Virus record (IMG/VR): IMGVR_UViG_3300022746_000007
Reading direction: 5' to 3' (one strand)
DNA: 41,487 bases
Origin: a virus
Below are positions 1 through 41,487 of this stretch, piece by piece. The notes beneath the pieces were generated by a model. That model searched no databases, was not told where the DNA came from, and was given only the letters and a program-made list of their open reading frames with translations. The translations under genes were made by a program, and so were the position numbers. Position 1 is the first letter of the stretch. The number at the start of each line of letters is the position of its first letter.

Positions 1-127
1 AATACCTGAATAACCTGAGTAACCAGAAATTCCTGAGAAGCCTGAAATACCAGACCAACCACTCCATCCACTAATGCCACTAAATCCTGACCATCCAGAG
101 ATACCACTATCTCCAGAATAACCAGAA
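1..127. repeat. Terminal direct overlap, identical to 41361-41487; implies a circularly closed or permuted genome of 41360 unique bp
   Basis: Direct reading: aatacctgaataacctgagtaaccagaaattcctgag...ctccagaataaccagaa is present at both window ends, 127/127 identical. Confidence 0.95.
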
Positions 128-975
128 ATACCAGACCATCCGCTTATGCCTGAGTAGCCACTATATCCGCTAATTCCACTATACCCAGAGAATCCACTTT
201 CGCCACTCCATCCTGAAATACCAGAAAAACCAGAATAACCTGATACTCCAGAACCAGAGTAACCACTAAATCCTGAAATACCGCTATCACCTGAGTATCC
301 TGAGATTCCAGAAAAACCTGAATATCCGCTAATACCAGACCATCCAGAAATACCTGAGAATCCACTAATGCCAGAATAACCACTAAATCCACTAATTCCT
401 GAATCGCCAGAGAAGCCAGAGATACCACTCCAACCTGACCATCCAGACATACCTGAATCACCGCTATAACCGCTAATACCACTAAATCCACTATAGCCTG
501 AAATGCCAGAATAACCTGAGTATCCTGAGAAGCCTGATGCACCAACTATCTGACCTGCATCAAACCATGCTGAACCATTCCATACCCATAAGTCACCATC
601 GGAAGTAACGATATAAGCATCATTGACATGATTGCCAGTCATAGGCAAATCATCAACGGTAGCTACTTCACCTTTAATGACAATGCTAGTACCTTGTTGT
701 CCGCTAAAGCCTGAAAAACCAGAGAATCCAGAAATCCCTGAATCTCCAGAATATCCAGAGATGCCAGAAAAGCCCGAGTAACCAGACATTCCAGAATATC
801 CTGAATATCCTGAGTAACCAGAATATCCATACAATCCTCTATCAAGATTGATAACTTGTCTAGGAGTAGGAATTACCTCAACATTAATGTTATGAGTTTC
901 TTGAACCTGTACAACAGTATCATTTACTTGAACATCGATATTATCAGGAGTACCTTTAGTGATTTTGACATCCAT
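1..975 (-). CDS. Tail fibre, N-terminal 325 codons of a 754-aa ORF that crosses the circular junction (continues 41360 -> 40071); Gly-X-Ser triplet repeats
   Basis: Minus-strand ATG at 975-973 with an in-frame stop just upstream (984-982). A codon-by-codon check of this frame from 975 to 1 finds no stop. Translation: MDVKITKGTPDNIDVQVNDTVVQVQETHNINVEVIPTPRQVINLDRGLYGYSGYSGYSGYSGMSGYSGFSGISGYSGDSG... The codon phase at base 1 joins the phase at 41360. Missing from the ORF track because it runs off the window edge. Confidence 0.85.
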   Translation of the reverse strand, partial: MDVKITKGTPDNIDVQVNDTVVQVQETHNINVEVIPTPRQVINLDRGLYGYSGYSGYSGYSGMSGYSGFSGISGYSGDSGISGFSGFSGFSGQQGTSIVIKGEVATVDDLPMTGNHVNDAYIVTSDGDLWVWNGSAWFDAGQIVGASGFSGYSGYSGISGYSGFSGISGYSGDSGMSGWSGWSGISGFSGDSGISGFSGYSGISGFSGISGWSGISGYSGFSGISGYSGDSGISGFSGYSGSGVSGYSGFSGISGWSGESGFSGYSGISGYSGYSGISGWSGISGYSGDSGISGWSGFSGISGWSGWSGISGFSGISGYSGYSGI

Positions 976-976
976 A

Positions 977-1456
977 TTAGTTCACCACGCCATCAGAACG
1001 AACCAAGAACAATAAGAAGATAATCTTATCTTGAGCAGGGTTTGTACCATCAGACGGGAAACTAATCTTAATTCGACCACTAAAAGCAACAGGATTTTCA
1101 GCAGCGATATTTAGTTCTGGGTCTGAAGAAATAACATTCCATGTATCTTCATCAATAACTAATGTGAAATAACCTAGAGCATCATCACGATTGACGATAG
1201 GCATAGAAACCGCAGGTGGCTCTGGGTCATAATCTTTAATATCGAAGCTTAATCCAGAGCGAGTATCAACTAGATTGTAGACTTCTCTACGAATAATTTG
1301 AGCATCAATAGTAACGCTAGTTAGGTCAATAGGAAGACCGTCAGTAGTTAATTGGATATTCCAAAAGTCATTCTGGTTATATACAAGCTCGCCAGCAATA
1401 CATTGATTGTTAAAACCACTTACTTGAGTGATTGTGTTCTTACTAAAAAGTGCCAT
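977..1456 (-). CDS. Hypothetical virion/fibre-associated protein (159 aa)
   Basis: ORF in the late operon; its stop at 977-979 lies one base from the fibre ATG; no motif recognised. Confidence 0.5.
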   Translation of the reverse strand: MALFSKNTITQVSGFNNQCIAGELVYNQNDFWNIQLTTDGLPIDLTSVTIDAQIIRREVYNLVDTRSGLSFDIKDYDPEPPAVSMPIVNRDDALGYFTLVIDEDTWNVISSDPELNIAAENPVAFSGRIKISFPSDGTNPAQDKIIFLLFLVRSDGVVN

Positions 1457-8496: not shown

Positions 8497-10884
8497 TTAC
8501 CTCGATGCTGGCAAGCCACGACTTGCTGATTGATTAGCTGCAAATACAGCATTTTTATTACTTGCCAAAGCTTGAGCAAATGACTGAGTATCAATTGCAT
8601 TGATATTGTAATTGTTTACAACAGTAGAGCCACCCATCATATCTGAAACTTGGTTATTAGGAATAATTGTTCCTGAAGTATTTGGAATAAATAATTCAGC
8701 ACCACGCTCACCTACAATAGAGGGGGAATTAGCAGGTAGACTACCACCAGTAGCATTAGTTTTTAATCCAAATGACGGAAAACTAGCTCCACTTGTTAAA
8801 AAATCAGTACCAGATTGACCGCTTGAAAATAATCCACTTAGGAAATTACCTGCTCCACCTAACATTTTAAGCATTTGAGCTTTTGCATAAATAGCAAAGA
8901 TGTCTAGGATTACAGACTTAGTAAAATCTTTAAATGCAAATTTTCCTGTCTTAACAAATGTTTCAACAGCATTAGCCATACTATTAAATACAGAATCATG
9001 AACATTCTTTAATAATTTTAATTGTTCACCTAGACCGATAACATTTTCTCTTTGCTTGCCAAGGCTTTCTTGTCTTTGTTTAAGGGCTTCTTTTTCTGTA
9101 TCTGTTAAGCCACTAGCCTTCATAATATCAGCAATATTTTTTTCTGTTTCCAATTTAGCCATTGCAATTTGCAAATCGGTATCAGATAAGGCAATATTTT
9201 TCTGATATAACTCTAGCTTTTCTCTTTCTTTATCAATAGATAATTGTTCAGCAGACTGTCTATCTTCAAATGTTTTCTTTTGCTGACGATTTAATTCTTC
9301 TTTTTGAGCTTGACCAGCAGATTCAATAGCTTGAACTTTCTCTAAGAACGCTTTGTATTCTTGAGGAAGTAATCCCGTACCTTTGTCTTTAATTTGTTTA
9401 TCAAAATCAATAGCAGCTTGAGCAAGCTTTCTTCTTGTCTCTAGTTCTATCTTCTCTTGTTGAGAAGCACCAGCCTCAAGAATATTGATTCTATCATCAA
9501 CAGCTTGTTTTACTGATTCTGTCTGTAATGCTAACTCTCTTTCGAATCCACCAGCCTTTTTATGTCTTTCAATAGCTTCAGATTCTTTTGCAGCTTTCGC
9601 AGCAGCAGCTTCAGCATCAGCAGCATCTTTCTGTAAATCAGCAACAGCTTTAGCAATATCAGTTTTTAAAGCATTTACATTTGCTTGATTTAAACCTTTG
9701 ACATTTGCCATTTCAGCATATTTAAGCTGCATTAACAAATCTGTTACTTTATCTGCTTTGGTCTGAGGTGCGCCAATCTTTTGCATACCATCAACGACTT
9801 CACTTACAAAGCCTTTGATGTTTCTCCATAATTTCTCAATTGAACCTAGGCGTTCATCATATTTCTTTAATGAATCATTGAAAGCATCAGCACCAGCTTT
9901 AGCTGCTAATTGATATTGACCTTGTTTATCTAATTGCTCTAGATATTTATATTGAGATAATGTTAGGAAGTGATACTTTTGATTCAAGGAATCAATTGAA
10001 GATATGCTTCCATTAAATGCAGGAATTAAGTCTTTTGCAACAACATCAGCAGATTCACCAGATAATTTACTAACTCTAGCAATAGCTTCAGCTACAGAAG
10101 ACATTGATTCTTGAGTAAACTTACCAGAAGCTACTAAAGCACCAAAGATTGTCTTAGATTCACCAATAGTTGTATTTAATTTTGTAGATAAAGCAAGAGC
10201 AAGACCATTAAATGAATCTCTAGTAACCCCTGCATATCCATTAGTTAAAATTAAATCATCTCTTAACCTAACAAATGCTTCATGCCCTTTATAGGCTTCA
10301 TAAGCAAGAGTTCCAACTACAGCAGCTACAGCACCTAATCCAACTCTTAATGGTGTCAATACTTGCTTGAAAGCATTAAACACATTAGTAATACCGCCAA
10401 ACTGGTCTTTTAATTGACCACCTTGTTGCAATAGAACAAGCATTGGATTCTGACCGCCAGCTAGTGATGTGATGATGTCAGTAGTCTGATAGCTAAGAGC
10501 TTGAAGTTGATAAGGTGTTAATCCAGCCTTTTGACCAGCAGCATTTAATTGGGCTGTCTTTAATTTACCAGCCTTCTCAGCAGCTAAGTCATAAGCAGCA
10601 GCAGCTTTTAATACTTCATTCTTTAATTCTTGAGTTGCCTTTGATAACTTATAAGTAGGGTCATTCATTTCCCTAGTAACTTTAGCTACCGCAGTTAATG
10701 GTGTTTCTAAATCTTGTGCTGCATAAGTTAATTTAACAATTTCATTCTGGGCTGCAGTTGCACCTGCCTTAATCTCCCGACCCATCTTTTTTGTTTCTTC
10801 AATGGCTTTACTTACACCCTTTTCGAGTTCGGCAACATCCATCCCCATTACAATGCCTAGGCGTGATAAATATTGATTAGCCAT
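8497..10884 (-). CDS. Tape measure protein (795 aa)
   Basis: Long Ala/Lys/Glu/Gln-rich coiled-coil-like ORF downstream of the chaperone pair, with a Gly-rich C-terminal part. At the rule-of-thumb ~0.15 nm per residue this suggests a tail of about 120 nm. Confidence 0.85.
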   Translation of the reverse strand: MANQYLSRLGIVMGMDVAELEKGVSKAIEETKKMGREIKAGATAAQNEIVKLTYAAQDLETPLTAVAKVTREMNDPTYKLSKATQELKNEVLKAAAAYDLAAEKAGKLKTAQLNAAGQKAGLTPYQLQALSYQTTDIITSLAGGQNPMLVLLQQGGQLKDQFGGITNVFNAFKQVLTPLRVGLGAVAAVVGTLAYEAYKGHEAFVRLRDDLILTNGYAGVTRDSFNGLALALSTKLNTTIGESKTIFGALVASGKFTQESMSSVAEAIARVSKLSGESADVVAKDLIPAFNGSISSIDSLNQKYHFLTLSQYKYLEQLDKQGQYQLAAKAGADAFNDSLKKYDERLGSIEKLWRNIKGFVSEVVDGMQKIGAPQTKADKVTDLLMQLKYAEMANVKGLNQANVNALKTDIAKAVADLQKDAADAEAAAAKAAKESEAIERHKKAGGFERELALQTESVKQAVDDRINILEAGASQQEKIELETRRKLAQAAIDFDKQIKDKGTGLLPQEYKAFLEKVQAIESAGQAQKEELNRQQKKTFEDRQSAEQLSIDKEREKLELYQKNIALSDTDLQIAMAKLETEKNIADIMKASGLTDTEKEALKQRQESLGKQRENVIGLGEQLKLLKNVHDSVFNSMANAVETFVKTGKFAFKDFTKSVILDIFAIYAKAQMLKMLGGAGNFLSGLFSSGQSGTDFLTSGASFPSFGLKTNATGGSLPANSPSIVGERGAELFIPNTSGTIIPNNQVSDMMGGSTVVNNYNINAIDTQSFAQALASNKNAVFAANQSASRGLPASR

Positions 10885-12417: not shown

Positions 12418-12616
12418 TTTGTTTTGTCTTTGTAGGTTTTGTGTAAGGATTGTATTTTGCTAGAACAGTTAATGCAACAAATTCTACTGTATCAGGAGTA
12501 GCCAATGCCAAAGCATCAGCCACTTCTTTACCATCAACTACCAAGCCTTGAGCAACAGAATCAAGGCTTGAATAAGTTGTCACCAATGTTTCAATTGCTT
12601 GGGCTAATGTAGTCAT
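12380..12616 (-). CDS. Hypothetical protein (78 aa)
   Basis: TAATG junction with the major tail gene stop at 12616. Confidence 0.45.
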   Translation of the reverse strand: MTTLAQAIETLVTTYSSLDSVAQGLVVDGKEVADALALATPDTVEFVALTVLAKYNPYTKPTKTKQNDTVKANTDTEQ

Positions 12617-13134
12617 TATGTGTTACTCCATCCATACTGGTTTCCACGAGGATGTACTGTAAATACACATTTCGCTTCAGCATTTGGCTGTGAATCAATC
12701 TTGAATTCAGATACACGACCATTGAAAGCATAAGCTTGGGTACTTGTGCCATCTACAGATGTAACTACAAATGTACGGTCAATAGAACCAGATTGTGAAT
12801 CAGAACGAATCAAGGCTAATGCTGCATCGCTTGGATTCCAAGGAGCAGTAATAGTCATAGATGTAGGTGCTGACTGAACTGGAATCTTGTCTGATTGACG
12901 AGAGCCTGCAACAGAGAATGAAGCGACAGCATCATCTTGTCCGAATGGTGGTACAGCTTCCACATTTAATTGGATACCTGCTGAACCAGTACCATTAGCA
13001 GCTACACCTGCAATGTTACCTACTTGACCAGTCCATACTGACAAGTTAGCAGTTGAAAGAGCAGTTGGATTAGAACCTGTTTGCATCCATAGGGATGCGG
13101 TCATTCCTGCTAAGATTTTATTTGGTGCTGTCAT
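12616..13134 (-). CDS. Major tail protein paralogue B (172 aa)
   Basis: Position after the neck genes. Shares PNKILAGMTAS, FGQDDAVA.F.VAGSRQSDKIPVQSAPTSMTITAPWNPSDA and SEFK.DSQPNAEAK.VFT.HPRGN.YGWSN with the adjacent ORF. Confidence 0.7.
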   Translation of the reverse strand: MTAPNKILAGMTASLWMQTGSNPTALSTANLSVWTGQVGNIAGVAANGTGSAGIQLNVEAVPPFGQDDAVASFSVAGSRQSDKIPVQSAPTSMTITAPWNPSDAALALIRSDSQSGSIDRTFVVTSVDGTSTQAYAFNGRVSEFKIDSQPNAEAKCVFTVHPRGNQYGWSNT

Positions 13135-13147
13135 TTCTTACTCCTAA

Positions 13148-13645
13148 TTAAGCGTTGTTAGACCAACCGTACATATTGCCACGAGGGTGCAATGTAAATA
13201 CAGCTTTAGCTTCAGCGTTAGGCTGAGAATCAACTTTGAACTCAGATGCTCTAGCATTGAAAGCATAATATTGAATGTTTGTGCCGTCAGTTGCAGCAAC
13301 TACATAAGTTCTTTCTGTAGATGAAATGCTTTCAGCATCAGCACGAACTTGAAGAATATTTGCATCACTTGGATTCCAAGGTGCTGTAATAGTCATTGAA
13401 GTTGGAGCAGATTGAACTGGAATCTTATCACTTTGACGAGAACCAGCTACAGTAAAGTTAGCTACAGCATCATCTTGACCAAATGCAGGTACAGCTTCAA
13501 TGTTCAACAAGTTACCAGATACAGCGATTGCTGATACATTGGCTAATGTAGACAATTGAGCAAGAGTTAAAGGTGTTGGAGTAGCTGAAGGCTGCATATA
13601 CATTGATGCAGTCATACCTGCTAAGATTTTATTTGGGATACCCAT
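13148..13645 (-). CDS. Major tail protein paralogue A (165 aa)
   Basis: As above; first tail gene after the head-tail joining genes. Confidence 0.7.
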   Translation of the reverse strand: MGIPNKILAGMTASMYMQPSATPTPLTLAQLSTLANVSAIAVSGNLLNIEAVPAFGQDDAVANFTVAGSRQSDKIPVQSAPTSMTITAPWNPSDANILQVRADAESISSTERTYVVAATDGTNIQYYAFNARASEFKVDSQPNAEAKAVFTLHPRGNMYGWSNNA

Positions 13646-20872: not shown

Positions 20873-20989
20873 TGAATTGGATTTCCGTTATATCCGCAAT
20901 GTTGTCTATAGAGTTGATACTGTTCATCAGTAATCCTACCCATATCTAACCACTCTTGGAGAACCTTAAGTGGTGGACAAACGAACTGA

Positions 20990-21205
20990 TTAAAGTTCGG
21001 ATTCAGTTGTGTTGGCATCTTCTTTCACCCTTTTTCTTCCAGCCTTTGAAATGACTGGCTTCTCATAAAGTTGAGCCTTGGCAATCTCTTCATTTCTCGC
21101 AGCTACTAACTTAACATAATGGTCATGACAAATTCTACCAGAGCCTACCTTTGATAATAACTCTTCATGGGTTAATTCGTCATTACCTACTTTGAACTTA
21201 ATCAT
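20990..21205 (-). CDS. Hypothetical basic protein (71 aa from the internal ATG)
   Basis: The ATG at 21205 overlaps the HNH stop (ATGATTAA). The longer listed ORF (to 21280) would overlap HNH by 83 nt. Confidence 0.45.
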   Translation of the reverse strand: MIKFKVGNDELTHEELLSKVGSGRICHDHYVKLVAARNEEIAKAQLYEKPVISKAGRKRVKEDANTTESEL

Positions 21206-21578
21206 AAAAACTCCTTGGGTCTTTTTTGGTTTTCCTACATATCGCTTCATATCCAGTTTTGACACTATGACATGAAGCACATAATGAAGCTAGATTAGTT
21301 ACATCAAGAAATAGACTAGTATCACCCCGATGTGGGGTCATGTGGTCTACCACCGTAGCTGGCGTAACTCTACCATCTTTTGCACATTTAACGCAAACAG
21401 GCTGCTTGCAGAGAACAGCATCTCGTAATGTTTTCCAGACACTTGTCGCATACATCGCATGATAATCTGGTCTAGATGTCTTTAGGTTTCGGATACGCTG
21501 ATGGTCTTCGCATCTGCCACTATTAACAGATTTGTTATGACATCCGAATTGAGAACAAGTGCTACGAACTTTTAGCAT
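21198..21578 (-). CDS. HNH endonuclease (terminase-associated type)
   Basis: CHNKSV..GRCEDHQ zinc-finger-like N-terminus; VVDHMTPHRGD...NLASLCASCHSVKTG is an HNH motif. Confidence 0.8.
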   Translation of the reverse strand: MLKVRSTCSQFGCHNKSVNSGRCEDHQRIRNLKTSRPDYHAMYATSVWKTLRDAVLCKQPVCVKCAKDGRVTPATVVDHMTPHRGDTSLFLDVTNLASLCASCHSVKTGYEAICRKTKKDPRSFYD

Positions 21579-22352
21579 CTTTTTACCATTTTTATATTAT
21601 ATTTTTTAATATATTGTAAGTTTTGTGAAAGTAATATTAACCGCTTTCCCTTTATTTTACAGGGAATTCCCCAAAAAAGGGTAGAAAAAACCGTTTCATG
21701 GGTAAACTATAACAGTATATTGTCAGAAAAGACCCCGTGCCTGCTTCCGAGACGGTTGCCAATACTTTTCATGAGAAGGCTTATTTTATATGGCTCTCAA
21801 GGCAGGAGATAGGCTACAGCCTTTTATTTATTGGTTTATCGGTTATCGATGTCATTATAGCCTTATATTATATACAGTCTAAGGCATTGGCTTATTGCTT
21901 ATAGTCTATCGCTATAGTCTAAGCCTATACAAATCAATGAGTTAGCTATATTTATCTCATTAACGCTATGGCTTCAATATGGATATATAGGGCATATTGA
22001 TTTAATAAGCGGTTTTCCTATGGCTATCTCTACCCATTGGCTAGGCTCTACCCTTTAGCCTTAGTTATCTATCCGCTTTCCTATGGTGTATTGCTTTATT
22101 GTTTTATCTAACTATTGGATAGTGATAAGTTAAGCCCTATAGATAGCCTTACATATATCTAATGTATATATGGCTATAGGTAGATAGTTGATAGGGGTCT
22201 AATGCTTACTTACTGTATGAATATGGATACATAGCCCATATTTCACATTATGAGAAAGTTAAAAATAATTAGACTTAGCCCTTGTTTTATTCATCGTTTT
22301 ACCTAAAATACATACATACGCAATCAAGCGGATATGTTGAAAGGGTTAAAAA
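21579..22352. other. 774-bp non-coding, repeat-dense divergent control region (left arm of the small-gene cassette)
   Basis: No ORF. Contains the palindrome gggaattccc (21662-21671), tatagtcta x2 (21900-21908, 21913-21921), tttcctatgg x2 (22014-22023, 22077-22086) and ctatggctatct (22018-22029), the last also found at 24876-24887. Many GGCTAT/ATAGCC words. Confidence 0.7.
22282..22309 (+). promoter_or_regulatory. Candidate sigma70-like promoter TTGTTT-16-TAAAAT for the small-gene cassette
   Basis: Hexamers read directly; about 44 nt upstream of the ATG at 22353. Confidence 0.25.
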
Positions 22353-22580
22353 ATGAAAAAATTAGACTTAAATAGAATCTTCTTTGTTTACCATGAGGCT
22401 TCTTTAGCGGTGTTTATTCTTTTCGGTTTTCTTTGTGAGTTATTAGCTGGCTTATGTCTTATCTATTCAGATAGCATTGTTCAGCCTGTGGGCTATTTTG
22501 CTTTAGCTTCATGCCCTGTATTTTTGCTTATTGCTTTATCTCTTATCTATTCAATTTATAAACAAGAAAAAAGGTTTTAA
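22353..22580 (+). CDS. Small membrane protein (75 aa, two hydrophobic helices)
   Basis: AAAGGGTTAAAAA ATG RBS context; hydrophobic segments LAVFILFGFLCELLAGLCLIY and FALASCPVFLLIALSLIYSIY. Confidence 0.55.
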   Translation: MKKLDLNRIFFVYHEASLAVFILFGFLCELLAGLCLIYSDSIVQPVGYFALASCPVFLLIALSLIYSIYKQEKRF

Positions 22581-22582
22581 TC

Positions 22583-22687
22583 ATGTTTAGAAAAATCTTA
22601 GACTATATTTTGGGCTTACTTGTTGCAACTGTTTTAATGGGCGGTTTAGGCTTTCTTATCGCTCTCTCTTTTATCTCTAACTCTTAA
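22583..22687 (+). CDS. 34-aa hydrophobic peptide (MFRKILDYILGLLVATVLMGGLGFLIALSFISNS)
   Basis: Below the ORF-track cutoff. ATG lies 2 nt after the previous stop, AAGG upstream, with a single TM-like segment. Confidence 0.4.
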   Translation: MFRKILDYILGLLVATVLMGGLGFLIALSFISNS

Positions 22688-22699
22688 AAGGTGCTATCA

Positions 22700-23044
22700 A
22701 TGAAAACTACTGTTTACCGCTCAGAATTCCACGATTATTTTACTAAGTCAGACACATATAAAAATCAGTTTTCGTATGAAGCTCGAGAAATCATTTTTGA
22801 CTATATAGAAGAATACGAAGAATCTACAGGTGTAGAAACTGAATTTGACCTAGTTTCGATTTGTTGCGACTTCTCAGAATCTACTATTTCAGAAATTGTT
22901 TTTGACTATGGATATCTTATGTCTTCATCTGATGGAGATAAACCAAAAGAATATATACAGGAATTTTTAGAAAGTAAAACCTCAGTCTGTGGCTCTTATA
23001 CAGACAATGAGGGAGAAACTGTTTTTGTATTTGGACAATTTTAA
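22700..23044 (+). CDS. Strongly acidic small protein (114 aa)
   Basis: ATG at 22700 preceded by AAAAGGTG. By my count about 25 Asp/Glu against 8 Lys/Arg. The FSYEAREIIFDYIEEYEE...EFDLVSICCDF pattern recurs in phage and plasmid small proteins. Confidence 0.6.
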   Translation: MKTTVYRSEFHDYFTKSDTYKNQFSYEAREIIFDYIEEYEESTGVETEFDLVSICCDFSESTISEIVFDYGYLMSSSDGDKPKEYIQEFLESKTSVCGSYTDNEGETVFVFGQF

Positions 23045-23057
23045 AAAGGGGTTAAAA

Positions 23058-23264
23058 ATGAGAAAAGCAAAAGTAAGATTATTTATTGACCAATATGGAT
23101 ATAAATATTACGCATCTACATTGAAAGAATTAAAAGAAAAACACTATCTAAAAGGCAAAATATCCAAAATGTATGTAGATAGAAAAGATAAGGTTTATCA
23201 CATTGGCTATGTAATTGGTCAAAATTGGCTTACTGAATTTTCACCAGTAGAAAAAGAGATTTAA
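23058..23264 (+). CDS. Hypothetical protein (68 aa)
   Basis: ATG at 23058 preceded by AAAAAGGGGTTAAAA. The longer listed ORF (from 22989) overlaps the previous gene. Confidence 0.55.
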   Translation: MRKAKVRLFIDQYGYKYYASTLKELKEKHYLKGKISKMYVDRKDKVYHIGYVIGQNWLTEFSPVEKEI

Positions 23265-23266
23265 TT

Positions 23267-23449
23267 ATGAAATTGATTTTTACTTATGATGAATTGGCTA
23301 CTATTAAAGAATCTATCAAAAACACACAAGATAGAATTGAAAACACTAGCGAAGAGCATATTTACGATAAAAGCGGAAAATTGATGGAATTAAAACTTAT
23401 TGATGCAAAAATTGTCTTATATCTTAACTATTTATCTAAAGGGGTTTAA
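23267..23449 (+). CDS. Hypothetical protein (60 aa)
   Basis: TAATTATG junction with the previous gene. Confidence 0.5.
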   Translation: MKLIFTYDELATIKESIKNTQDRIENTSEEHIYDKSGKLMELKLIDAKIVLYLNYLSKGV

Positions 23450-23451
23450 TT

Positions 23452-23625
23452 ATGGCTATTTATAGAATAGAAGCAAGCGAAACTGTCTACTATACAAAAA
23501 ATGTAGAAGCTGAAAGCGAAGAGCAAGCAAGGGAGCTAGTTTTTCAAGGTGAAATTGATTTTGACTATGGAGATATAAGAGATGCTCATGATTTCCAAAT
23601 AAATAACATTATAAAAGAGAGTTAA
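23452..23625 (+). CDS. Hypothetical protein (57 aa, MAIYRIEASETVYYTKNVEAESEEQARELV...)
   Basis: Below the ORF-track cutoff; AAAGGGG RBS and a TAATTATG junction. Confidence 0.5.
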   Translation: MAIYRIEASETVYYTKNVEAESEEQARELVFQGEIDFDYGDIRDAHDFQINNIIKES

Positions 23626-23627
23626 TT

Positions 23628-23864
23628 ATGAGTTATTTTTCAGATTTAGCCATTGAATATGAAGAAAAAGCAATTAAAACTGAGCTAATAAGAGATTATC
23701 AAATGATTGACTTAGCTTTAAAGTTAGCTATAAGAAATACAACAATTCTATATAAAAAAATAGAGCAATTTAGGGGATACAACTCAGACTGTAGTTTATT
23801 AGATGATTTAGAGCAAAAAATATTTGACATGATTGAAGATTTAGAAATAGGGCTAAAGCTATGA
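23628..23864 (+). CDS. Hypothetical protein (78 aa)
   Basis: TAATTATG junction with the previous gene. Confidence 0.5.
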   Translation: MSYFSDLAIEYEEKAIKTELIRDYQMIDLALKLAIRNTTILYKKIEQFRGYNSDCSLLDDLEQKIFDMIEDLEIGLKL

Positions 23865-24016
23865 AAAAACACATATTCACATTAAAACATGATAGCGGAA
23901 AGGTAAAAATTACCACATGGGGCTATAGCTCTATAGAATCCGCTACTAAATTCATTATGGAGCTAGAAAAATGCCCTAAAAGAGCAATTATTAAAGTTAT
24001 AGAAAAAACAATTTAA
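23861..24016 (+). CDS. Hypothetical protein (51 aa, MKKHIFTLKHDSGKVKITTWGYSSIESATKFIMELEKCPKRAI...)
   Basis: Below the cutoff; ATGA overlap with the previous gene; followed by a terminator hairpin. Confidence 0.5.
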   Translation: MKKHIFTLKHDSGKVKITTWGYSSIESATKFIMELEKCPKRAIIKVIEKTI

Positions 24017-24027
24017 CAATGCGACAT

Positions 24028-24060
24028 AAAAGCCCATTTTTATAAGTGGGCTTTTGTATT
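24028..24060 (+). terminator. Rho-independent terminator candidate
   Basis: aaagccca tttttataag tgggcttt followed by tgtatt. Confidence 0.55.
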
Positions 24061-24117
24061 GGCATTGGCTAATAGCTACGCCCTAGGCTTTAGGGCTTTA
24101 CTTATTAGGGGTTTTAC

Positions 24118-24276
24118 ATGAGAAAAATAGACATTTATTACAAGTGGAAAGGCGTATTTGTATATGCTTGCTCAACAAATAAGGCGGTAAGCTGTAAAGA
24201 AGCTAAAAACAATTTTTTAAAGGCTTACCCTAATTTTCCATCTAATCTAGTTAAAACTTGTTTTTCTAAGGCTTAA
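24118..24276 (+). CDS. Hypothetical protein (52 aa, MRKIDIYYKWKGVFVYACSTNKAVSCKEAKNNF...)
   Basis: Below the cutoff; TAGGGGTTTTAC ATG RBS context. Confidence 0.45.
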   Translation: MRKIDIYYKWKGVFVYACSTNKAVSCKEAKNNFLKAYPNFPSNLVKTCFSKA

Positions 24277-24279
24277 ACC

Positions 24280-24444
24280 ATGAACACTATCTTTTTGGCT
24301 GTACCTATTGGCTCATTATTTGAGTATGGCGGTACAGCATACATAAAACAATCTAATCGAACCGCCAAGCTATTAGAGAATCAATCTAAATGGTTTTATT
24401 TTAGCCCTAGGGATAGAGTACGCATCATGGGAAAGGCGGTTTAA
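24280..24444 (+). CDS. Hypothetical protein (54 aa, MNTIFLAVPIGSLFEYGGTAYIKQSNRTAKLL...)
   Basis: Below the cutoff; starts 3 nt after the previous stop. Confidence 0.45.
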   Translation: MNTIFLAVPIGSLFEYGGTAYIKQSNRTAKLLENQSKWFYFSPRDRVRIMGKAV

Positions 24445-24445
24445 T

Positions 24446-24637
24446 ATGTCTATAAGATTCTTAGAAAATGGCTTAATAGCCATCGAGTACCATAGAAAAC
24501 CAACAAAAGCAGAAATAAAAAGGGGTTATGGTTGCACCCATTACAGGGAATTTCTAGCTAATGAGTTTTTAAACAAGCAGGGAAAGCCTAAAAAATGGCT
24601 TGTCTGTTCTTCTGATGGTTTACGCTATTATCGATAA
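24446..24637 (+). CDS. Hypothetical protein (63 aa)
   Basis: AAAGGCGG RBS; starts 1 nt after the previous stop; followed by a terminator. Confidence 0.5.
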   Translation: MSIRFLENGLIAIEYHRKPTKAEIKRGYGCTHYREFLANEFLNKQGKPKKWLVCSSDGLRYYR

Positions 24638-24639
24638 TT

Positions 24640-24661
24640 AGCCCTTAATAGGGCTTTTTTC
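24640..24661 (+). terminator. Rho-independent terminator
   Basis: agccct taat agggct followed by tttttt. Confidence 0.65.
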
Positions 24662-25136
24662 ATTTTCGCTTAGTGCTTAACTAATAGGGCATTTTTTGCC
24701 TTATTGGGTAAGTATTGCCAAAAATTTAGCCTTTAGGCTAGGTGTAATATCGCTCTTTAAAAATTAGCTTATGGGCTATTTATGCCCTTATATTGAATTT
24801 ATAGCGGATAGGCTAGGTGTTTTATCGCCTGTAGATTTTAGGTAAAACGCTACCTATTTAATTATTGCCTTTAGGCTATGGCTATCTATACTTAAAAAAT
24901 GGCTTCAAGTAATTTATTAAATATACGCTCTAAACCATTGTTTTATATACGAAAAAAACACTTAGTAAAAATTATATAATATAAAAAAACAATATATAAA
25001 AAAATATTATATAAAATCACTAAGTATATGACTTTTGGGAAACACCCACTGCTCATTTTCAAAAAAAAAAATGAAGTCCTCTATTTCACCCTTAATTTCA
25101 CTTCTCAAATCTGCATGAAATATTAATAAAATATTT
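24662..25136. other. 475-bp non-coding right arm of the small-gene cassette, with repeats and an extreme AT tract
   Basis: taggctaggtgtNNtatcgc x2 (24734-24753, 24809-24828). ctatggctatct (24876-24887) is shared with 22018-22029. A 7-bp inverted repeat acttagt/actaagt (24960-24966, 25019-25025) brackets 52 bp that are almost pure A+T. A11 run at 25061-25071. Confidence 0.7.
25061..25104 (-). terminator. Weak terminator candidate for the rusA/dps-like operon
   Basis: Minus strand GAAGT (22-nt loop) ACTTC followed by A then T11; the stem is only 5 bp. Confidence 0.3.
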
Positions 25137-36670: not shown

Positions 36671-36941
36671 ATTACTAGAACATCACCATTTCAGAATTCA
36701 GAATACTCTTTCTTGGAGAGCAGAATACATATTGGCTCATATTGCAGTACATGAAGGCTGCAAAATGGGATTCCTAAGAGACTTCTGTATTAGATACCAT
36801 TCTGTACCTAAAATTGTACATAAACTTGTACAAGATGGATTTGTAGAGATTAAGCAGACTGATAAATTAAGGAAGTTTCTATACCTTACAGACAAGGGAA
36901 AGAACTACATTAATTCTATTGAAGCTTTCTATCAAGCGTAA
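36663..36941 (+). CDS. MarR-like winged-helix regulator candidate (92 aa from the coupled ATG)
   Basis: ILAHIAVHEGCKMGFLRDFCIRYHSVPKIVHKLVQDGFVEIK...YLTDKGKNY; the ATG overlaps the upstream stop (ATGACTAA). Confidence 0.45.
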   Translation: MTKLLEHHHFRIQNTLSWRAEYILAHIAVHEGCKMGFLRDFCIRYHSVPKIVHKLVQDGFVEIKQTDKLRKFLYLTDKGKNYINSIEAFYQA

Positions 36942-37363
36942 GGTCTAGTACCTTTTTCATCGATAATCAACATCTGACCTCTAGGGGTCTCATTTGGATG
37001 GTTCGGGATGCTAACATGAACCCATGTTAGCTCCTGAATTAACTGGTCAAATTGGATGTCAGAAGCTTTAATTACTTCACATATCTCTCTAGGTGTCATT
37101 CCACCAACACGGAAGTCACACGCTGCTCCTACACGGTGCTGTGATGATTCTTTGCTGCCTAGCATTGTATTTAATACAGAACTTCTATAGCCTGAATCTA
37201 CAACCATAGGCTTGCCAATTACTTTACGAACTTCCTCTAGGAAAGCAGCTAATCTAAATAGATTAGCAGAAGCAATCATATTAGGAGTGTTATCAATGCC
37301 TTTTCTAGCACCAGTAGCGGAAAATGTTAGCTCTTCAAGAGTAAAGTGTTCTGATAAATTCAT
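36932..37363 (-). CDS. Endolysin, zinc peptidase M15 family (D-Ala-D-Ala carboxypeptidase fold)
   Basis: DSGYRSSVLNTMLGSKESSQHRVGAACDF carries the SGYR...N...S.H..G.A.D signature; adjacent to the holin. Confidence 0.75.
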   Translation of the reverse strand: MNLSEHFTLEELTFSATGARKGIDNTPNMIASANLFRLAAFLEEVRKVIGKPMVVDSGYRSSVLNTMLGSKESSQHRVGAACDFRVGGMTPREICEVIKASDIQFDQLIQELTWVHVSIPNHPNETPRGQMLIIDEKGTRPYA

Positions 37364-37761
37364 GCTACGCCTTTAAGCTTCTCATAGGTTCTTAACCCAC
37401 CAAGACCTAATAAACCACCCAAAACAGTCATTAAAGTAGTCATATCAAATGAAATAACGATTTCTTGATACTTTAAACCCACTAGAATAAAGTTAATTAT
37501 TGGGAATAATACAAAATGTAATGCAAATGAAATTGAGCAAGTCCAACCTACTGATGGTCTCCACCCTGATTTAAACAAAGAATCTGACTTTGCTTCTTCT
37601 AAATTGACCTGAATTTGTGCTAAATCACGCTGAAAATCTTGGTCATTGATTGCTTTATTTAATTCAGATTTAGCTAATTCTCTAGCATTTGTGTCTGGAA
37701 TTACCCTGTCTAGAATCTTTCCACCAATATCGATTATTGCTGTAACAGGGTCAAATGCCAT
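37360..37761 (-). CDS. Holin, three-TM GTA-holin-like family
   Basis: IIDIGGKILDRVIPDTNAR...SLFKSGWRPSVGWTCSISFALHFVLFPIINF fits the family I recall as GTA_holin_3TM; ATGA overlap with the endolysin gene. Confidence 0.6.
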   Translation of the reverse strand: MAFDPVTAIIDIGGKILDRVIPDTNARELAKSELNKAINDQDFQRDLAQIQVNLEEAKSDSLFKSGWRPSVGWTCSISFALHFVLFPIINFILVGLKYQEIVISFDMTTLMTVLGGLLGLGGLRTYEKLKGVA

Positions 37762-38013
37762 TTAGAACCTCAATCCATGAGTTTTAAGGAAATCTACGAA
37801 TACATAACCTACACCGCAAATACAGAACCAAACAAATCCAGCTAAACTCTTTTCAATAATTGCCTGTCTTAACGCTTTACGCTCTGCTTGTGCTTCAATT
37901 GCCAGCCTAACCCATTGTGCTTCTTCTGGTGTCAAATGGTGGCTGGTAATAGGAACTTCTTTTAATACCGTCATCAACTCTTCTATTAGCTCTTTGCGTT
38001 CTTGCGGTGACAT
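37762..38013 (-). CDS. Membrane-anchored lysis-cassette protein (83 aa)
   Basis: C-terminal TM LAGFVWFCICGVGYVFVDFL; directly upstream of the holin. Confidence 0.4.
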   Translation of the reverse strand: MSPQERKELIEELMTVLKEVPITSHHLTPEEAQWVRLAIEAQAERKALRQAIIEKSLAGFVWFCICGVGYVFVDFLKTHGLRF

Positions 38014-38051
38014 ACATACTCCAAAAGTTAAGTTGATGATATATGGGTATT

Positions 38052-38492
38052 TTATTTGAAGTTTTTAATATTATAAATAACTTCTTCAGGAGAGACAAAC
38101 TTCTCTGGGTCAAATGGAGTATCTTCCCACCAGAGGAATTGATTTGGAGCTAAACAATCCTTAGATTTCAATAGATTAATGTTGATATCATGTCCAAAGA
38201 TGGCTGGATTAGATACTGACCATAGGACAATGCCTTTCTTTTCTTGCTGCCAAGCTAAATGTTGGAAGAAACTATCGCAAGATACCCATGTACGACATTT
38301 ATGAAGTAATAAACATAGCTCACTTAAAGATAAGTTTTTCCTGAAATCATCAACAAGTTGTTCCTCACCCTCTACTCCAACCTGTATAATTTCCTCATCA
38401 ATACTCTGGATAACTTGCTTCCAGAAGGGATAGTTTTTTGGATTTGGTTTACCATTGCGTAGTTTTTGAGCGTATGGTGAAATAATAATCAT
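38052..38492 (-). CDS. Glycosyltransferase family 9-like C-terminal domain protein (146 aa)
   Basis: NPKNYPFWKQVI..IIQVGVEGEE...LSLSELCLLLHKCRTWVSCDSFFQHLAW...GIVLWSVSNPAIFGH follows the heptosyltransferase C-domain pattern (K.WP, G..E, sL.EL, DSG..HLA, FG). Confidence 0.5.
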   Translation of the reverse strand: MIIISPYAQKLRNGKPNPKNYPFWKQVIQSIDEEIIQVGVEGEEQLVDDFRKNLSLSELCLLLHKCRTWVSCDSFFQHLAWQQEKKGIVLWSVSNPAIFGHDININLLKSKDCLAPNQFLWWEDTPFDPEKFVSPEEVIYNIKNFK

Positions 38493-40051
38493 TTGTATAA
38501 CTTTCTAAAAGCATCCTGTAAAGATTCTGTCCATTCCCATTGAGCCATTTTCTGATAAATATTCCATCTATCAATATTGCCAAATAATTCAATAGCTTTA
38601 GAAATAGGTTCACCATCAACAATTTCTGGGTAACAAGTAAATATCAATGGGTTTTTTAATTCATTAATAATAGATTTGAATACAACATGGTCTCCCATGC
38701 CACAATTCAATACCACAATAGTGCGGTCTTTATATTTAAGGAAGTTCTGGAAAATTTGTTCATCTTTATCATATAAAGCAGCATTAGTTTCGCTTCTAAT
38801 ACCACCAGTAGGATTCTTTAAATGCCATGTAATTGCATCAGGGATTACCAACAATCTATATCCTTTGAGATGCAATCCATAAGAGAATAAAGTCTCTTCC
38901 CTATGAGCAACTCTAGACAATCCTAAATGATAATCATTAATTCCAGCACGATATAAGAATGAGCAATATAAATGTTCTACTTGCTTAACCCAATTAAGCA
39001 TACCCCATTGGACATTAGGTTCTTTTTCTATATTTTCAATTAAACCAGTAGAGTTCAATGTTTGTAATGGGACTGGTGGAGTGATTACTGAGCCACCAAC
39101 AGCACCAATGCTTTCACTCTTATATGCAGTAGTAGCATAAGTGTATAGTTCTTCTAATACATTAGGTTCTGGAATAGCATCATCATCGACACGCCATACC
39201 CAATCATATCCTGCTGTATTAGCTGCCTGATGAATATGATGCTGACCTTTTTTGCCTGCAAATTTCCACTCCCAAGGAACTCCTTTAACATCTAGCATAT
39301 AAAATAGATGTGCGTATAGAAAGTCTTGCCTTAAATCTTTAGGCTCATCATTATCATCAAATATAACTAATTTATCTGGAAGTTTAGTCTGATTCAATAT
39401 AGCTTGAATAACCATAGGAAGAGTAGAATGGTATCTTCCTCTCGTAGCAATAGAACATAAAACAGTTTCTTTTTTATCCCATGAGCCAATCAATAGATTA
39501 CAATGATTTTCATTAGATAAGGCTTCCAGATACTTACTAATTCTGCCTTCTTCATTAATATAATTAAATTTAAAATTAGGGAAGTTGTATTCTGTTAAAC
39601 CATGTAGCTTATGATGCTCACCCCAAAATCCTTTAGGTTCTTTATGCGGAACTGTTATCAATAAACGCTTGCAATGTTTCTTGAGCTTTTCAATAATCTC
39701 TAAGCCATTATCAAGATGCTCAATCACTTCAAATGCAATGATTGTGTCATATTGCTCTAATTCAAATGTATTGATGTCTGCATGAAAGAATTTAGCATTT
39801 GGATGCCAATCTTGTTGATTAGCTACATCAATAATACGCTTATCATAATCTATACCTGTGTAATCAACAACTCCAAGGAATTGAAATCCATAACCAGATG
39901 AACAGCCAATTTCTAATACTTTTTTACCAAGTATATTCTTAGCAGCCCATGAGTAACGAGCAGTTTCTCGGGCTTCTATTTCATCGCCCTTTAAGAATAC
40001 TGCTCGTTCATAATTGTTTTTTAATTCGTGTTTATATTGTTCTATATCCAT
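38489..40051 (-). CDS. Multidomain SAM methyltransferase - GT2 glycosyltransferase fusion with a GT9-N-like tail (520 aa)
   Basis: VLEIGCSSGYGF (motif I) and IIAFEVIEHL. Then LCSIATRGR...LNQTKLPDKLVIFDDNDEP and WRVDDD (GT-A DxD). The C-terminal TIVVLNCGMGDHVVFKSII resembles the start of a GT9 N-domain. Confidence 0.65.
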   Translation of the reverse strand: MDIEQYKHELKNNYERAVFLKGDEIEARETARYSWAAKNILGKKVLEIGCSSGYGFQFLGVVDYTGIDYDKRIIDVANQQDWHPNAKFFHADINTFELEQYDTIIAFEVIEHLDNGLEIIEKLKKHCKRLLITVPHKEPKGFWGEHHKLHGLTEYNFPNFKFNYINEEGRISKYLEALSNENHCNLLIGSWDKKETVLCSIATRGRYHSTLPMVIQAILNQTKLPDKLVIFDDNDEPKDLRQDFLYAHLFYMLDVKGVPWEWKFAGKKGQHHIHQAANTAGYDWVWRVDDDAIPEPNVLEELYTYATTAYKSESIGAVGGSVITPPVPLQTLNSTGLIENIEKEPNVQWGMLNWVKQVEHLYCSFLYRAGINDYHLGLSRVAHREETLFSYGLHLKGYRLLVIPDAITWHLKNPTGGIRSETNAALYDKDEQIFQNFLKYKDRTIVVLNCGMGDHVVFKSIINELKNPLIFTCYPEIVDGEPISKAIELFGNIDRWNIYQKMAQWEWTESLQDAFRKLYK

Positions 40052-40070
40052 ATTGTATTGTGTTGTGTTA

Positions 40071-41487
40071 TTAAGTTTTGCGAATCATATCATACAATTC
40101 TTTAATTTGTAATTTAAGGCTCACAACTTCTTTTGCTAATTCAACAGCAGAAACAAGAGCAGCATTACCGTAGGCAAGGGACAACTTTCCATCAGCGTCT
40201 GTAAGAACTGTTTCAGGTAACAAATTTTGCATCCCTTGCGCAGACACACCAGCCTGAGTGGCATCCATATCTGTACGGTCATAAATACCAGATTTGACAT
40301 TAGCAAGTTTTTCAATAAAGCCTTCTTGAACAGGTCTCCAGTTTTTCTTTAATGTTTCATCTGAGTAAGCTGTGATGTTGCCAGACATGGTTAAAGAACC
40401 ACTGAAAGTCCTACCACCAGTATTTAAGTACTCAATCCAACTGCCAAAAGAATTACCAGTGATGTTTCGGGTTAACATCCTATTTGCATTATCTTCCCAA
40501 CCCCAAGCTATCTGAGTACCCCAGTAGTTACTTGAGTTAGAATGCCGCATATTTTCAATAAACCACCAAGTGCCTCCAGGGTTATTTGTTACATTTGCAT
40601 CATCGCCTTGGTATCTATATGTGCCAGCAGGCGTATTTTGGAAATCTGTGTTGTAGTTTCCTGATGTGCCAGTTCTTTGAATATAGTTTGAACCGTTTAA
40701 CCAAGTAGCTGAGTTTGCACTTGTTGCAGTAGCAGCATTACCAGTACATGAAGCTGATGAGCCATTTATACTTCCAATGATTGTATTGTTGAAAGTATTT
40801 GTATTTGTCCAAGTATTAGCTGAACCTAATATAGATGAACCTGCTGCTCCACTATATCCAGAATAACCTGATGTTCCTTGTGCGCCTGTAGCTCCAGAAT
40901 AACCTGAATACCCTGATGTACCAGTTGCTCCAGTTGAGCCTGTTGCACCAGTAGCTCCAGAATAGCCAGAATAACCACTTGCACCTTGGCTACCATTGAT
41001 TCCAGAATAACCTGAGTATCCACTAGCACCTGTCGCTCCAGTAGAACCAGTTGCTCCTGTAGCACCTGAATATCCAGAATAACCACTTATCCCAGATGCA
41101 CCATTAATTCCAGAATAACCTGAATATCCTGATGTACCAGTTGCTCCATTTAAACCTGAATAACCAGAAATTCCACTATAACCAGAAGCACCGTTAATAC
41201 CTGAATAACCTGAAATACCACTAAATCCAGATATACCAGAATAACCACTCCAACCACTTACACCAGAACCAGAATATCCTGAGTAACCTGATACACCACT
41301 TCCAGAATAGCCACTAATGCCACTCCAGCCAGAGATACCAGAGTATCCTGACCAACCGCTAATACCTGAATAACCTGAGTAACCAGAAATTCCTGAGAAG
41401 CCTGAAATACCAGACCAACCACTCCATCCACTAATGCCACTAAATCCTGACCATCCAGAGATACCACTATCTCCAGAATAACCAGAA
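40071..41487 (-). CDS. Tail fibre, C-terminal part of the same wrap-around ORF (unique part 40071-41360): Gly-X-Ser/Thr triplets, globular tip, C-terminal Peptidase S74-type intramolecular chaperone domain
   Basis: The frame of listed ORF 40071..40550 stays open upstream through 41487, checked triplet by triplet. Translation: ...SGWSGYSGISGWSG...GATGATGSTGATGASGYSGYSG...AAGSSILGSANTWTNTNTFNNTIIGS...WWFIENMRHSNSSNYW...; AYSDETLKKNW fits the S-D-x-x-x-K motif of endosialidase-type chaperone domains. Confidence 0.85.
   Translation of the reverse strand, partial: SGYSGDSGISGWSGFSGISGWSGWSGISGFSGISGYSGYSGISGWSGYSGISGWSGISGYSGSGVSGYSGYSGSGVSGWSGYSGISGFSGISGYSGINGASGYSGISGYSGLNGATGTSGYSGYSGINGASGISGYSGYSGATGATGSTGATGASGYSGYSGINGSQGASGYSGYSGATGATGSTGATGTSGYSGYSGATGAQGTSGYSGYSGAAGSSILGSANTWTNTNTFNNTIIGSINGSSASCTGNAATATSANSATWLNGSNYIQRTGTSGNYNTDFQNTPAGTYRYQGDDANVTNNPGGTWWFIENMRHSNSSNYWGTQIAWGWEDNANRMLTRNITGNSFGSWIEYLNTGGRTFSGSLTMSGNITAYSDETLKKNWRPVQEGFIEKLANVKSGIYDRTDMDATQAGVSAQGMQNLLPETVLTDADGKLSLAYGNAALVSAVELAKEVVSLKLQIKELYDMIRKT
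41361..41487. repeat. Second copy of the terminal overlap (identical to 1-127)
   Basis: Same as above. Confidence 0.95.

Follow-up and report, generated by a model that had tools for sequence, protein, structure and literature searches.

Can a bacteriophage glycosylate its own collagen-like tail fibre? This question is raised by a locus in the IMG/VR virus record IMGVR_UViG_3300022746_000007, a stretch of 41,487 nucleotides that is called the window here and to which all coordinates refer unless another sequence is named. In it, two overlapping open reading frames (ORFs), ORF520 (520 amino acids, aa; 38489..40051, minus strand) and ORF146 (146 aa; 38052..38492, minus strand), lie immediately downstream of a gene for a fibre with regularly spaced serines, and a preliminary description of the locus had regarded them as a candidate module for glycosylation of the virion. 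Profile searches, structure models and the comparison of related loci establish here what the domains are, that the catalytic residues and the split of a GT9-like glycosyltransferase (GT) are conserved, that the genes lie in a late operon and that the module co-occurs strictly with the fibre in a lineage followed through a neutral anchor gene. The reading that we favour with moderate confidence, from the sequences and the models, is that the module would carry out a late, cytoplasmic O-glycosylation of the serines of the phage's own collagen-like fibre.

The fibre and the domains of ORF520

The window is a circular contig, since its bases 1-127 are repeated exactly at 41361-41487; this 127-bp terminal overlap is probably an assembler k-mer artefact, and the genome is that of a complete phage of 41,360 bp. 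Because the contig is circular, the genes at its ends, including the fibre gene, are cut by the linearisation point. The 3' part of the fibre gene (40071..41487, minus strand) comprises the last 472 codons and the stop, with Gly-X-Ser repeats, a globular region and a Peptidase_S74 domain according to the translation and Pfam, while the N-terminal part (1..975, minus strand), recovered by circular reconstruction, begins with the ATG at 975 and runs over the junction. The complete protein has 754 aa and contains 124 triplets of the form G-X-[S/T]-G but only 8 Pro; the fibre with more than 100 regularly spaced Ser/Thr that had been described before is therefore real, and longer than the end of the window shows. 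The X position is mainly occupied by Tyr, Ile, Phe, Ala and Trp. The protein matches Pfam Collagen in eight stretches (E 5e-58) and, at its C-terminus, the Peptidase_S74 intramolecular chaperone (E 9e-7), that is, it has both the Gly-X-Y repeats and the C-terminal Peptidase_S74 domain of a collagen-like phage tail fibre with chaperone. A small globular insert at fibre aa ~95-145 (window ~540-690, minus strand; QQGTSIVIKGEVATVDDLP...DAYIVTSDGDLWVWNGSAWFDAGQIVG) interrupts the collagen repeats, and is also found in the fibre protein gp23 of the cultured phage P19250A and in several relatives.

The arrangement of the genes next to the fibre was confirmed, on the minus strand: the fibre stop codon lies at 40071-40073 and the ATG of ORF520 at 40051, which leaves a spacer of 19 nt, and the stop of ORF520 overlaps the start of ORF146 in an ATGA (38489..38492, minus strand; AAATGATT). 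The first domain of ORF520 (aa 1-195; 39467..40051, minus strand) is a class I methyltransferase dependent on S-adenosylmethionine (SAM), as indicated by Pfam, the Protein Data Bank (PDB) and the motif VLEIGCSSGYG. Its aa 34-139 match Methyltransf_23 with an E-value of 4.8e-11, five Pfam methyltransferase families exceed their cut-offs, and PDB entry 3l8d is matched with E 5.8e-5; both the Rossmann-like fold and the GxGxG SAM motif of the class are present.

The second domain (aa 196-435; 38747..39466, minus strand) is a GT2 glycosyltransferase of the GT-A fold, identified by Pfam PF00535, by Foldseek and by invariant alignment columns. Glycos_transf_2 (PF00535) is matched by aa 208-308 with E 2.1e-7 and 31.5 bits against a cut-off of 23.3, and the residues D232-D233 (in FDDND) and D289-D290-D291 (in WRVDDD) are invariant in the family alignment. 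The AlphaFold models of ORF520 and ORF146 are confident, with predicted local distance difference test (pLDDT) scores of ~87 for both (86.8 and 87.2), and the comparison of the ORF520 model with the PDB by Foldseek finds GT-A enzymes of several families at ~1e-8 with no single best identity, for example RmlT, TarP, pp-GalNAc-transferases, collagen galactosyltransferase and GlfT2. Consequently, the PF00535 match, the GT-A fold and the acidic DxD-type motifs expected of a GT2 enzyme are all found in ORF520, and both domain assignments made earlier for this protein hold.

A putative GT9-like enzyme on two polypeptides

Is the small ORF146 then also a glycosyltransferase? It is a free-standing GT9-like C-lobe, i.e., the nucleotide-sugar-binding Rossmann domain, according to Pfam PF01075, Foldseek and invariant residues. 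Glyco_transf_9 (PF01075) is matched by aa 53-100 with E 3.7e-5 and 23.6 bits against a gathering cut-off of 22, and many homologues of ORF146 carry a precomputed PF01075 annotation; the NCBIfam heptosyltransferase I model scores only 15 bits, far under its cut-off. In sequence and profile searches against PDB chains, WaaC appeared non-significantly (E 1.8) among chance matches, so that a comparison of folds was required. For the AlphaFold model of ORF146, the top 22 PDB matches in Foldseek (prob 0.99-1.0, TMq 0.52-0.64, E ~1e-3) are GT9-type enzymes, namely WaaC, a Veillonella GT9, TibC and WaaF. In addition, an alignment of naturally fused homologues, rather than ORF146 itself, matches residues 197-289 of WaaC in hhalign with P 93% and E 3e-7.

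The residues K19, D73 and H78 of ORF146 are invariant in 31 diverse sequences and correspond to K192, D261 and H266 of WaaC. Here hhalign pairs ISVDNFLPH of the natural-fusion alignment with VSVDTGLSH of WaaC, while the equivalence of K19 and K192 is based solely on the motif NPKNYP / DDKHWP. K192 and D261 of WaaC are conserved in all heptosyltransferases as catalytic or binding residues, and are mutationally important (PMC5713226). The donor-site Lys and Asp of GT9 enzymes are thus present in ORF146, in agreement with its earlier description as a GT9 C-domain, and the methyltransferase, GT2 and GT9 C-half assignments are each supported by profile, fold and catalytic residues.

Where, then, is the N-lobe? 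The full N-lobe of a GT9 enzyme, with the catalytic Asp (D13 in WaaC) on the same polypeptide, is not found, and the lobes are on two polypeptides. The last part of ORF520 (aa 436-520; 38492..38746, minus strand), defined from the model and from invariant residues, forms a mini-domain that starts with a beta-strand, GMGD and a helix. It is a separate folded unit with two strands in the AlphaFold model (pLDDT 85-96), in which G451, G453, D454 and H455 are invariant and make up a GxGD motif after the first strand. This start resembles that of the WaaC N-lobe (strand, SSMGD13, helix), where D13 is the catalytic base. PF01075 leaves the mini-domain uncovered, even in the natural fusion P0247. We hypothesise, from the motif and the natural fusions, that the mini-domain is a reduced GT9 N-lobe which would give the catalytic Asp D454 to the ORF146 C-lobe.

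The fusions were found by an exhaustive profile search: in P0247, P0248, P0258, P0293 and P0313, the GT2 domain, the mini-domain and the C-lobe follow each other in N-to-C order on one chain. The homologues of ORF146 comprise 1,669 clusters, almost all of ~145 aa, and those of ORF520 more than 3,300 clusters, all ending in the mini-domain; the split arrangement is kept in more than 1,600 protein clusters. In 123/123 related loci, the start codon of the C-lobe lies within the last 4-26 nt of the ORF before it, in the form of ATGA in 70/123, and this ATGA overlap would couple the translation of ORF520 and ORF146 and favour their co-production. Judging from these sequences, the split of the GT9-like enzyme is ancient and its halves appear to belong together. 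It is not an assembly error, since the identical set of 754-, 520- and 146-aa genes was assembled independently in three sample sets (ENA, JGI and Logan); with the many homologous clusters, these assemblies also mean that ORF520 and ORF146 are real genes rather than chance ORFs.

The family of ORF520 exists in several forms, i.e., methyltransferase-GT2-mini (~520 aa), GT2-mini (~322 aa, the commonest) and GT2-methyltransferase-GT2-mini (~750 aa). A methyltransferase is present at 117/155 related loci, as part of such proteins, as a separate gene or fused with an extra GT2, and was undetected at 38/155, some of which are truncated by contig ends. Therefore, the core module is the GT2-mini protein together with the C-lobe, and the methyltransferase is accessory. 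A giant multi-enzyme architecture is that of P0279, a protein of 1,700 aa with two GT2 domains, a TOD1/MUCI70-like domain, GT17 and Methyltransf_24, whose GT9C-like domain is C-terminal.

Co-occurrence of the module with proline-free fibres

Does the module accompany this kind of fibre in other phages? A neutral anchor was available in the 159-aa gene directly upstream of the fibre (977..1456, minus strand), a homologue of P19250A gp22 with 65% identity to P19250A 20909-21388. With the alignment of its homologues as query, 554 related IMG/VR stretches were collected, among which 34 loci have at least 6 kb of downstream flank (L317 was counted as having both fibre and module, though a contig end cuts the module). 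A Pro-free Gly-X-Ser fibre and the GT module occur together at 23 of these loci, neither occurs at 11, and none is discordant (Fisher p = 3.5e-9). In a neighbour-joining tree built from the anchor gene, loci of both states are intermingled, which requires at least 6 joint changes.

The fibres of the two states differ sharply in composition. Those with the module have long Gly-X-Ser segments of 140-256 triplets, with Ser at Y in 78-97% and Pro triplets making up 0-4%. The orthologues at loci lacking the module share the N-terminal domain and carry another collagen segment: short proteins of 87-104 aa (L289, L291, L294, L302 and L320) have 2-5 GPQ/GPP triplets with Ser at Y in at most 40% and 50-80% Pro triplets, whereas long ones with BclA-like Gly-Pro-Thr repeats (L295, L304, L306 and L359) have 54-61 triplets with Thr at Y in 70-77%, Ser at Y in 4% or less and ~56% Pro triplets. 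A further orthologue from a locus without the module (L322, 915 aa) belongs to neither type, with 10 triplets, Ser at Y in 40% and 30% Pro triplets. The collagen chemistry switches as a cassette inside one phage group.

Two further sets of loci were examined from the side of the enzymes and from that of the fibre. Among 60 IMG/VR loci found by the GT module and having at least 5 kb of upstream flank, an x-Ser-Gly-rich ORF is present at 56, and the exceptions have Thr-rich or Gly-rich fibre proteins in its place (L019, L102/L124) or are a GT cluster on a 482-kb contig (L155); here fibres were scored by the density of 'SG', because a strict, uninterrupted Gly-X-Y expression undercounted register-shifted fibres such as those of L045 and L053. 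Conversely, a DNA pattern for GYSGYSGYSG yielded 42 loci with x-Ser-Gly repeats of at least 100 aa, and the module was found in at least 22 of them within the available stretch. Nine of the 42 have at least 3.5 kb of downstream flank, and the module lies downstream in five (L186, L188, L239, L260 and, weakly, L263); at L167 a diverged module lies upstream of the fibre, L182 and L195 are without it, and at L237 a long Gly-rich ORF reaches the contig end, so that this locus was not counted either way. The pairing also recurs in three unrelated lineages with other gene orders, namely L154 (on a contig of 179.6 kb), L162 (46% GC) and L167. Over the loci compared, the C-terminal domains of the x-Ser-Gly fibres fall into 39 different clusters, which indicates that the module follows the chemistry of the stalk and not the receptor-binding tip.

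Could the fibre and the enzymes simply travel together, as one recombination cassette whose parts have no biochemical relation, with the enzymes acting, for example, on DNA or producing a glycan that is free or lipid-linked? The genes are adjacent, tail-fibre regions are swapped as blocks, and the anchor tree shows repeated exchange. However, the pairing is kept in other gene orders and on unrelated backbones, no recombinant with one part alone occurs among the 23 anchored relatives with the module and the 11 without it, and late expression is at odds with a protection of DNA. To our knowledge, the GT2 and GT9-like folds also differ from those of the phage DNA glycosyltransferases. We consider such hitch-hiking very improbable.

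It is quite unlikely, though less so, that the enzymes glycosylate other virion proteins, such as the capsid, the tail tube or Gly-/Thr-rich fibres, and that the Ser-rich fibre is merely a frequent neighbour. At a few loci lacking x-Ser-Gly fibres (L019 and L102/L121/L124) the module stands among fibre genes, at L156 it is next to a sheath-like gene, and mycobacteriophage GTs act on capsid and tail tube (as cited in PMC12363180). On the other hand, 0/34 discordant anchored loci, the sharp contrast of fibre composition and the independent pairing in L154, L162 and L167 speak against it.

Position in the late operon

The module sits between the fibre gene and a lysis cassette (36932..38013, minus strand; Pfam and hydropathy) that closes the same late transcription unit and consists of a small ORF (83 aa, a single hydrophobic segment), a holin (GTA_holin_3TM) and an endolysin (Peptidase_M15_3). 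No terminator-like site was found in 36800-41487, the stretch of the fibre, the module and the lysis genes, and ORF520 and ORF146 belong to the late structural/lysis operon. Neither of them contains a membrane-spanning segment (the maximal 19-residue hydropathy is 1.31 and 0.85, respectively), and from their sequences both enzymes appear soluble.

These features bear on the remodelling of the host envelope, an alternative raised from the beginning, in which the enzymes would modify the core of the lipopolysaccharide (LPS), the O-antigen or the capsule, and might mask the receptor against progeny or competing phages. GT9 is the classical family of LPS-core heptosyltransferases, remodelling is the usual reading of GTs in the hypervariable tail-fibre regions of pelagimyophages (PMC7029224; PMC10202952), and the module also stands beside non-Ser fibres; moreover, peripheral LPS enzymes need no transmembrane (TM) segment. 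Nevertheless, neither a flippase nor a membrane GT or TM segment accompanies the module, the genes are in a late structural/lysis operon, and the N-lobe, which binds Kdo2-lipid A in true heptosyltransferases, is cut to ~85 aa here. Furthermore, the module tracks the composition of the stalk (Pro-free Gly-X-Ser versus GPP/GPT) while the tips vary freely over their 39 clusters.

In seroconversion of the GtrABC type, a membrane GT and a flippase are carried by temperate phages and prophages. Those hallmarks are absent here: ORF520 and ORF146 have no TM segment, no integrase-sized unassigned ORF is left in the window, and the close ORF146 family was absent from isolate genomes and present on only 6 contigs of metagenome-assembled genomes (MAGs) among 185,579 species genomes, in a scan that reaches close relatives. 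The lack of an integrase-sized ORF and the absence of the family from isolate genomes mean that lysogenic conversion is not the case. The six MAG contigs come from freshwater or groundwater bins of unrelated phyla, for example L277 (JAHEYD010000010.1, labelled as a Nitrosotalea MAG), and they are probably mis-binned phage contigs, one of which has a phage-like size of 38.9 kb. Weakened by the soluble enzymes, the late operon, the missing integrase and the absence from isolates, envelope remodelling is in our opinion unlikely, although it deserves more weight than the two alternatives discussed above.

A putative route of fibre glycosylation

How might the fibre be glycosylated? In the route that we infer, as regards acceptor and donor sugar as well as the sequence of the steps and the stabilising role, the Gly-X-Y triplets of the fibre polypeptide, which has almost no Pro, would present ~124 Ser/Thr in their Y positions. 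The acting enzyme would be a GT9-like one of two polypeptides, with a reduced N-lobe (ORF520 aa 436-520, Asp454) and a C-lobe (ORF146, with the donor-binding Lys19 and Asp73). It may put the first sugar on the hydroxyl groups of the serines, and by analogy with TibC/AAH this sugar would most likely be a heptose, with ADP-heptose of the host as its source; the GT2 domain of the same polypeptide could then add a further sugar, and the methyltransferase, whose substrate would be a sugar hydroxyl, might cap the glycan by O-methylation in analogy with A064R. The glycan would stabilise and/or shield the Pro-free triple helix. A stabilisation of the helix by the glycan is suggested by the fact that the module is tied to Pro-free stalks and absent with Pro-containing ones.

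Extending this route, we tentatively propose, from sequences and analogies, that in a very abundant group of freshwater phages a dense serine O-glycan may replace Pro/hydroxyproline as the stabiliser of tail-fibre collagen, started by a heptose, extended and capped by a methyl group; that it would be made by a two-polypeptide GT9 whose N-lobe is joined to the next enzyme of the pathway; and that phages may swap proline and glyco-serine collagens as one cassette. This fuller scheme is possible rather than probable.

Several observations weigh against the glycosylation of the fibre by this module. The triplet register of the fibre is broken at several points, with uninterrupted runs of 17, 33, 34, 3 and 47 triplets. 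The hhalign comparison of the mini-domain with WaaC, WaaF and their alignment gave P <1% and no significant match, and for this reason its role as a GT9 N-lobe is kept as a hypothesis; the separate fold, the invariant GxGD and the natural fusions speak for the earlier suggestion of a likeness between ~80 aa and the beginning of a GT9 N-domain, whereas the profile comparison does not. Besides, the C-lobe is also fused to other glycan-tailoring partners without a mini-domain, i.e., FkbM and MT24 methyltransferases, a pyruvyl transferase and GT17, and it occurs in a multi-GT protein of 1,700 aa. Soluble GT2 and GT9 enzymes in the synthesis of LPS or polysaccharide on the cytoplasmic side of the membrane have no TM segments either.

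Exceptions to the co-occurrence exist in both directions. The module occurs without an x-Ser-Gly protein in the available flank at L019, where the fibre is Thr-rich, at L102/L121/L124, where the fibres are Gly-rich, at L155, a GT cluster on a 482-kb contig, and at L156, where it adjoins the sheath-like gene; an x-Ser-Gly fibre without the module is seen at L182 and L195. In addition, the adjacency of fibre and GT genes lets a single recombination move both, so that the co-occurrence statistics overstate independence. The link between module and fibre, which had been drawn from adjacency, has therefore gained the 23 to 11 split without discordance and the three further lineages, but it is qualified by these exceptions and by the ease of joint transfer.

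At L182 (L182:28-11951), the x-Ser-Gly fibre stands beside a UDP-glucose dehydrogenase, a UDP-galactopyranose mutase and a sulfotransferase, perhaps an alternative set of glycan enzymes serving fibres of this type. It is also flanked by a protein with a zeta-toxin-like kinase domain and by a 1,065-aa protein of RCC1 repeats.

Comparison with known systems

Virion glycosylation by enzymes of the virus itself, the O-heptosylation of proteins and GT-B enzymes in split form have each been described before. How does the present module differ from them? The nearest fold to ORF146 is the C-lobe of WaaC/HepI and WaaF, GT9 enzymes of E. coli, with which it shares the invariant Lys and Asp, while the GxGD of the mini-domain is like MGD13 of WaaC. 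In contrast to these enzymes, the phage form has its lobes on separate polypeptides, with a putative N-lobe of ~85 instead of ~170 aa that is fused behind a GT2 domain, and the genes are in a phage fibre/lysis operon; Kdo2-lipid A is an unlikely acceptor for the phage enzyme. GT-B enzymes that are split into an N-lobe and a C-lobe protein, which must associate, are exemplified by Alg13/Alg14 and Cps14F/Cps14G. Those are of the GT1/GT28 type with a membrane-anchored N-lobe protein, whereas the enzyme here is GT9-like and its N-part would be a mini-domain fused to GT2.

TibC and AAH, of the bacterial autotransporter heptosyltransferase (BAHT) family, are WaaC-related GT-B enzymes that hyper-glycosylate the serines of repetitive, serine-rich autotransporters and have an atypical, reduced N-lobe, which is four-stranded in TibC (PMC4358343). 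TibC is among the top structural matches of ORF146, but is no closer than WaaC, and phage proteins labelled Aah/TibC occur among the BFVD matches. ORF146 does not group with the BAHT enzymes in sequence and profile searches of the PDB, in which TibC was unmatched. The substrate of the phage enzyme would be a collagen-like triple helix and not a beta-helix, and unlike TibC the phage enzyme comes in two parts and is linked to GT2 and methyltransferase domains.

In the mycobacteriophages Che8, Corndog and Myrna, phage GTs modify the phages' own capsid and tail proteins (Freeman et al. 2023, as cited in PMC12363180). No homology to GTs of the Che8 gp110 or Corndog gp38 type was found by tblastn against 50,697 phage records. 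Here the phages are freshwater ones of the Methylophilaceae type, and we propose a collagen-like fibre as the target, in place of the capsid or the tail tube. A064R of the chlorovirus PBCV-1 is a GT-GT-methyltransferase that builds and caps the N-linked glycan of the virion capsid with soluble, cytoplasmic GTs, and L230 of a giant virus glycosylates a collagen-like viral protein on hydroxylysine (PMC9614988). The combination of a multi-domain viral GT with a SAM methyltransferase is similar, but the domain families and their order differ, and an O-linkage to Ser in a bacteriophage is predicted here.

Collagen-like repeats with O-glycans have been described outside viruses. In work attributed to Mann in 1996, glycosylated Thr at Y reportedly stabilises the cuticle collagen helix of a vent worm, in the role of hydroxyproline. 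The collagen-like exosporium protein BclA carries O-glycans that include an O-methylated sugar (PMC6222408). In BclA and the vent worm, cellular enzymes act on repeats of the Gly-Pro-Thr type or based on Thr, whereas in the phages compared here the fibre orthologues of the GPT type are those without the GT module.

Our literature searches found no account of glycosylated collagen-like phage fibres, of this GT module or of a split GT9. That a phage glycosylates its own virion has so far been shown by experiment in only a few mycobacteriophages, and the GTs in tail-fibre regions of aquatic phages are routinely taken as modifiers of the host surface. Here the module, which is represented by thousands of freshwater-virome protein clusters, is tied specifically to Pro-free Gly-X-Ser stalks. 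If the proposed glycosylation is true, it would represent a new way to stabilise collagen helices, relevant to designed collagens, and would extend GT9-type enzymes, here in split form, to a further class of substrates; the fibre glycans may then affect host recognition, stability or the evasion of grazing or immunity in abundant environmental phages.

The cultured relative P19250A

Could the prediction be examined in a cultured phage? The window is syntenic with P19250A (L001, KX815270), a cultured phage of the LD28 clade, over the whole structural module, with 26-73% identity. The gene order of P19250A is as in the window, with the fibre (gp23), the methyltransferase (gp24), the GT2-mini protein (gp25) and the C-lobe (gp26), of which gp24-gp26 are annotated as hypothetical. 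Because the module occurs in this culturable phage, whose host is an LD28 methylotroph, the prediction is directly testable. In the tblastn search of the 50,697 phage records with ORF520 and ORF146, P19250A (a Methylophilaceae phage) was the only match, and the terminase and a tail protein of the window matched just distant phages or P19250A in the phage collection. That fibre and GT genes had been placed as a cassette on an unrelated backbone, in the window relative to P19250A, was considered and is ruled out by the synteny of the structural module.

As a side observation, gp23 of P19250A (21390-24995) carries the annotation 'tail length tape-measure protein' although the protein is a Gly-X-Ser collagen-like fibre of 1,201 aa; the true tape measure of this phage is gp15.

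Other features of the genome

A 369-aa ORF (2302-3411, minus strand), with the J-like tail protein on one side and the fibre region on the other, is extremely Gly-rich, with GGGG runs, and has no Pfam match. Its counterpart in P19250A has 925 aa and is annotated as 'PE family protein', and Gly-rich proteins of this kind flank the GT module at loci without Ser-rich fibres. In the block of tail-tip genes, a 144-aa ORF (6784-7218, minus strand), syntenic with gp18 of P19250A, has a weak GNAT match (Acetyltransf_4, E 0.005, below threshold). Finally, two adjacent ORFs of 172 and 165 aa (12616-13134 and 13148-13645, both minus strand) are paralogous and match one P19250A gene (8597-9094) with ~57% identity, which represents a tandem duplication of a structural gene of the tail region.

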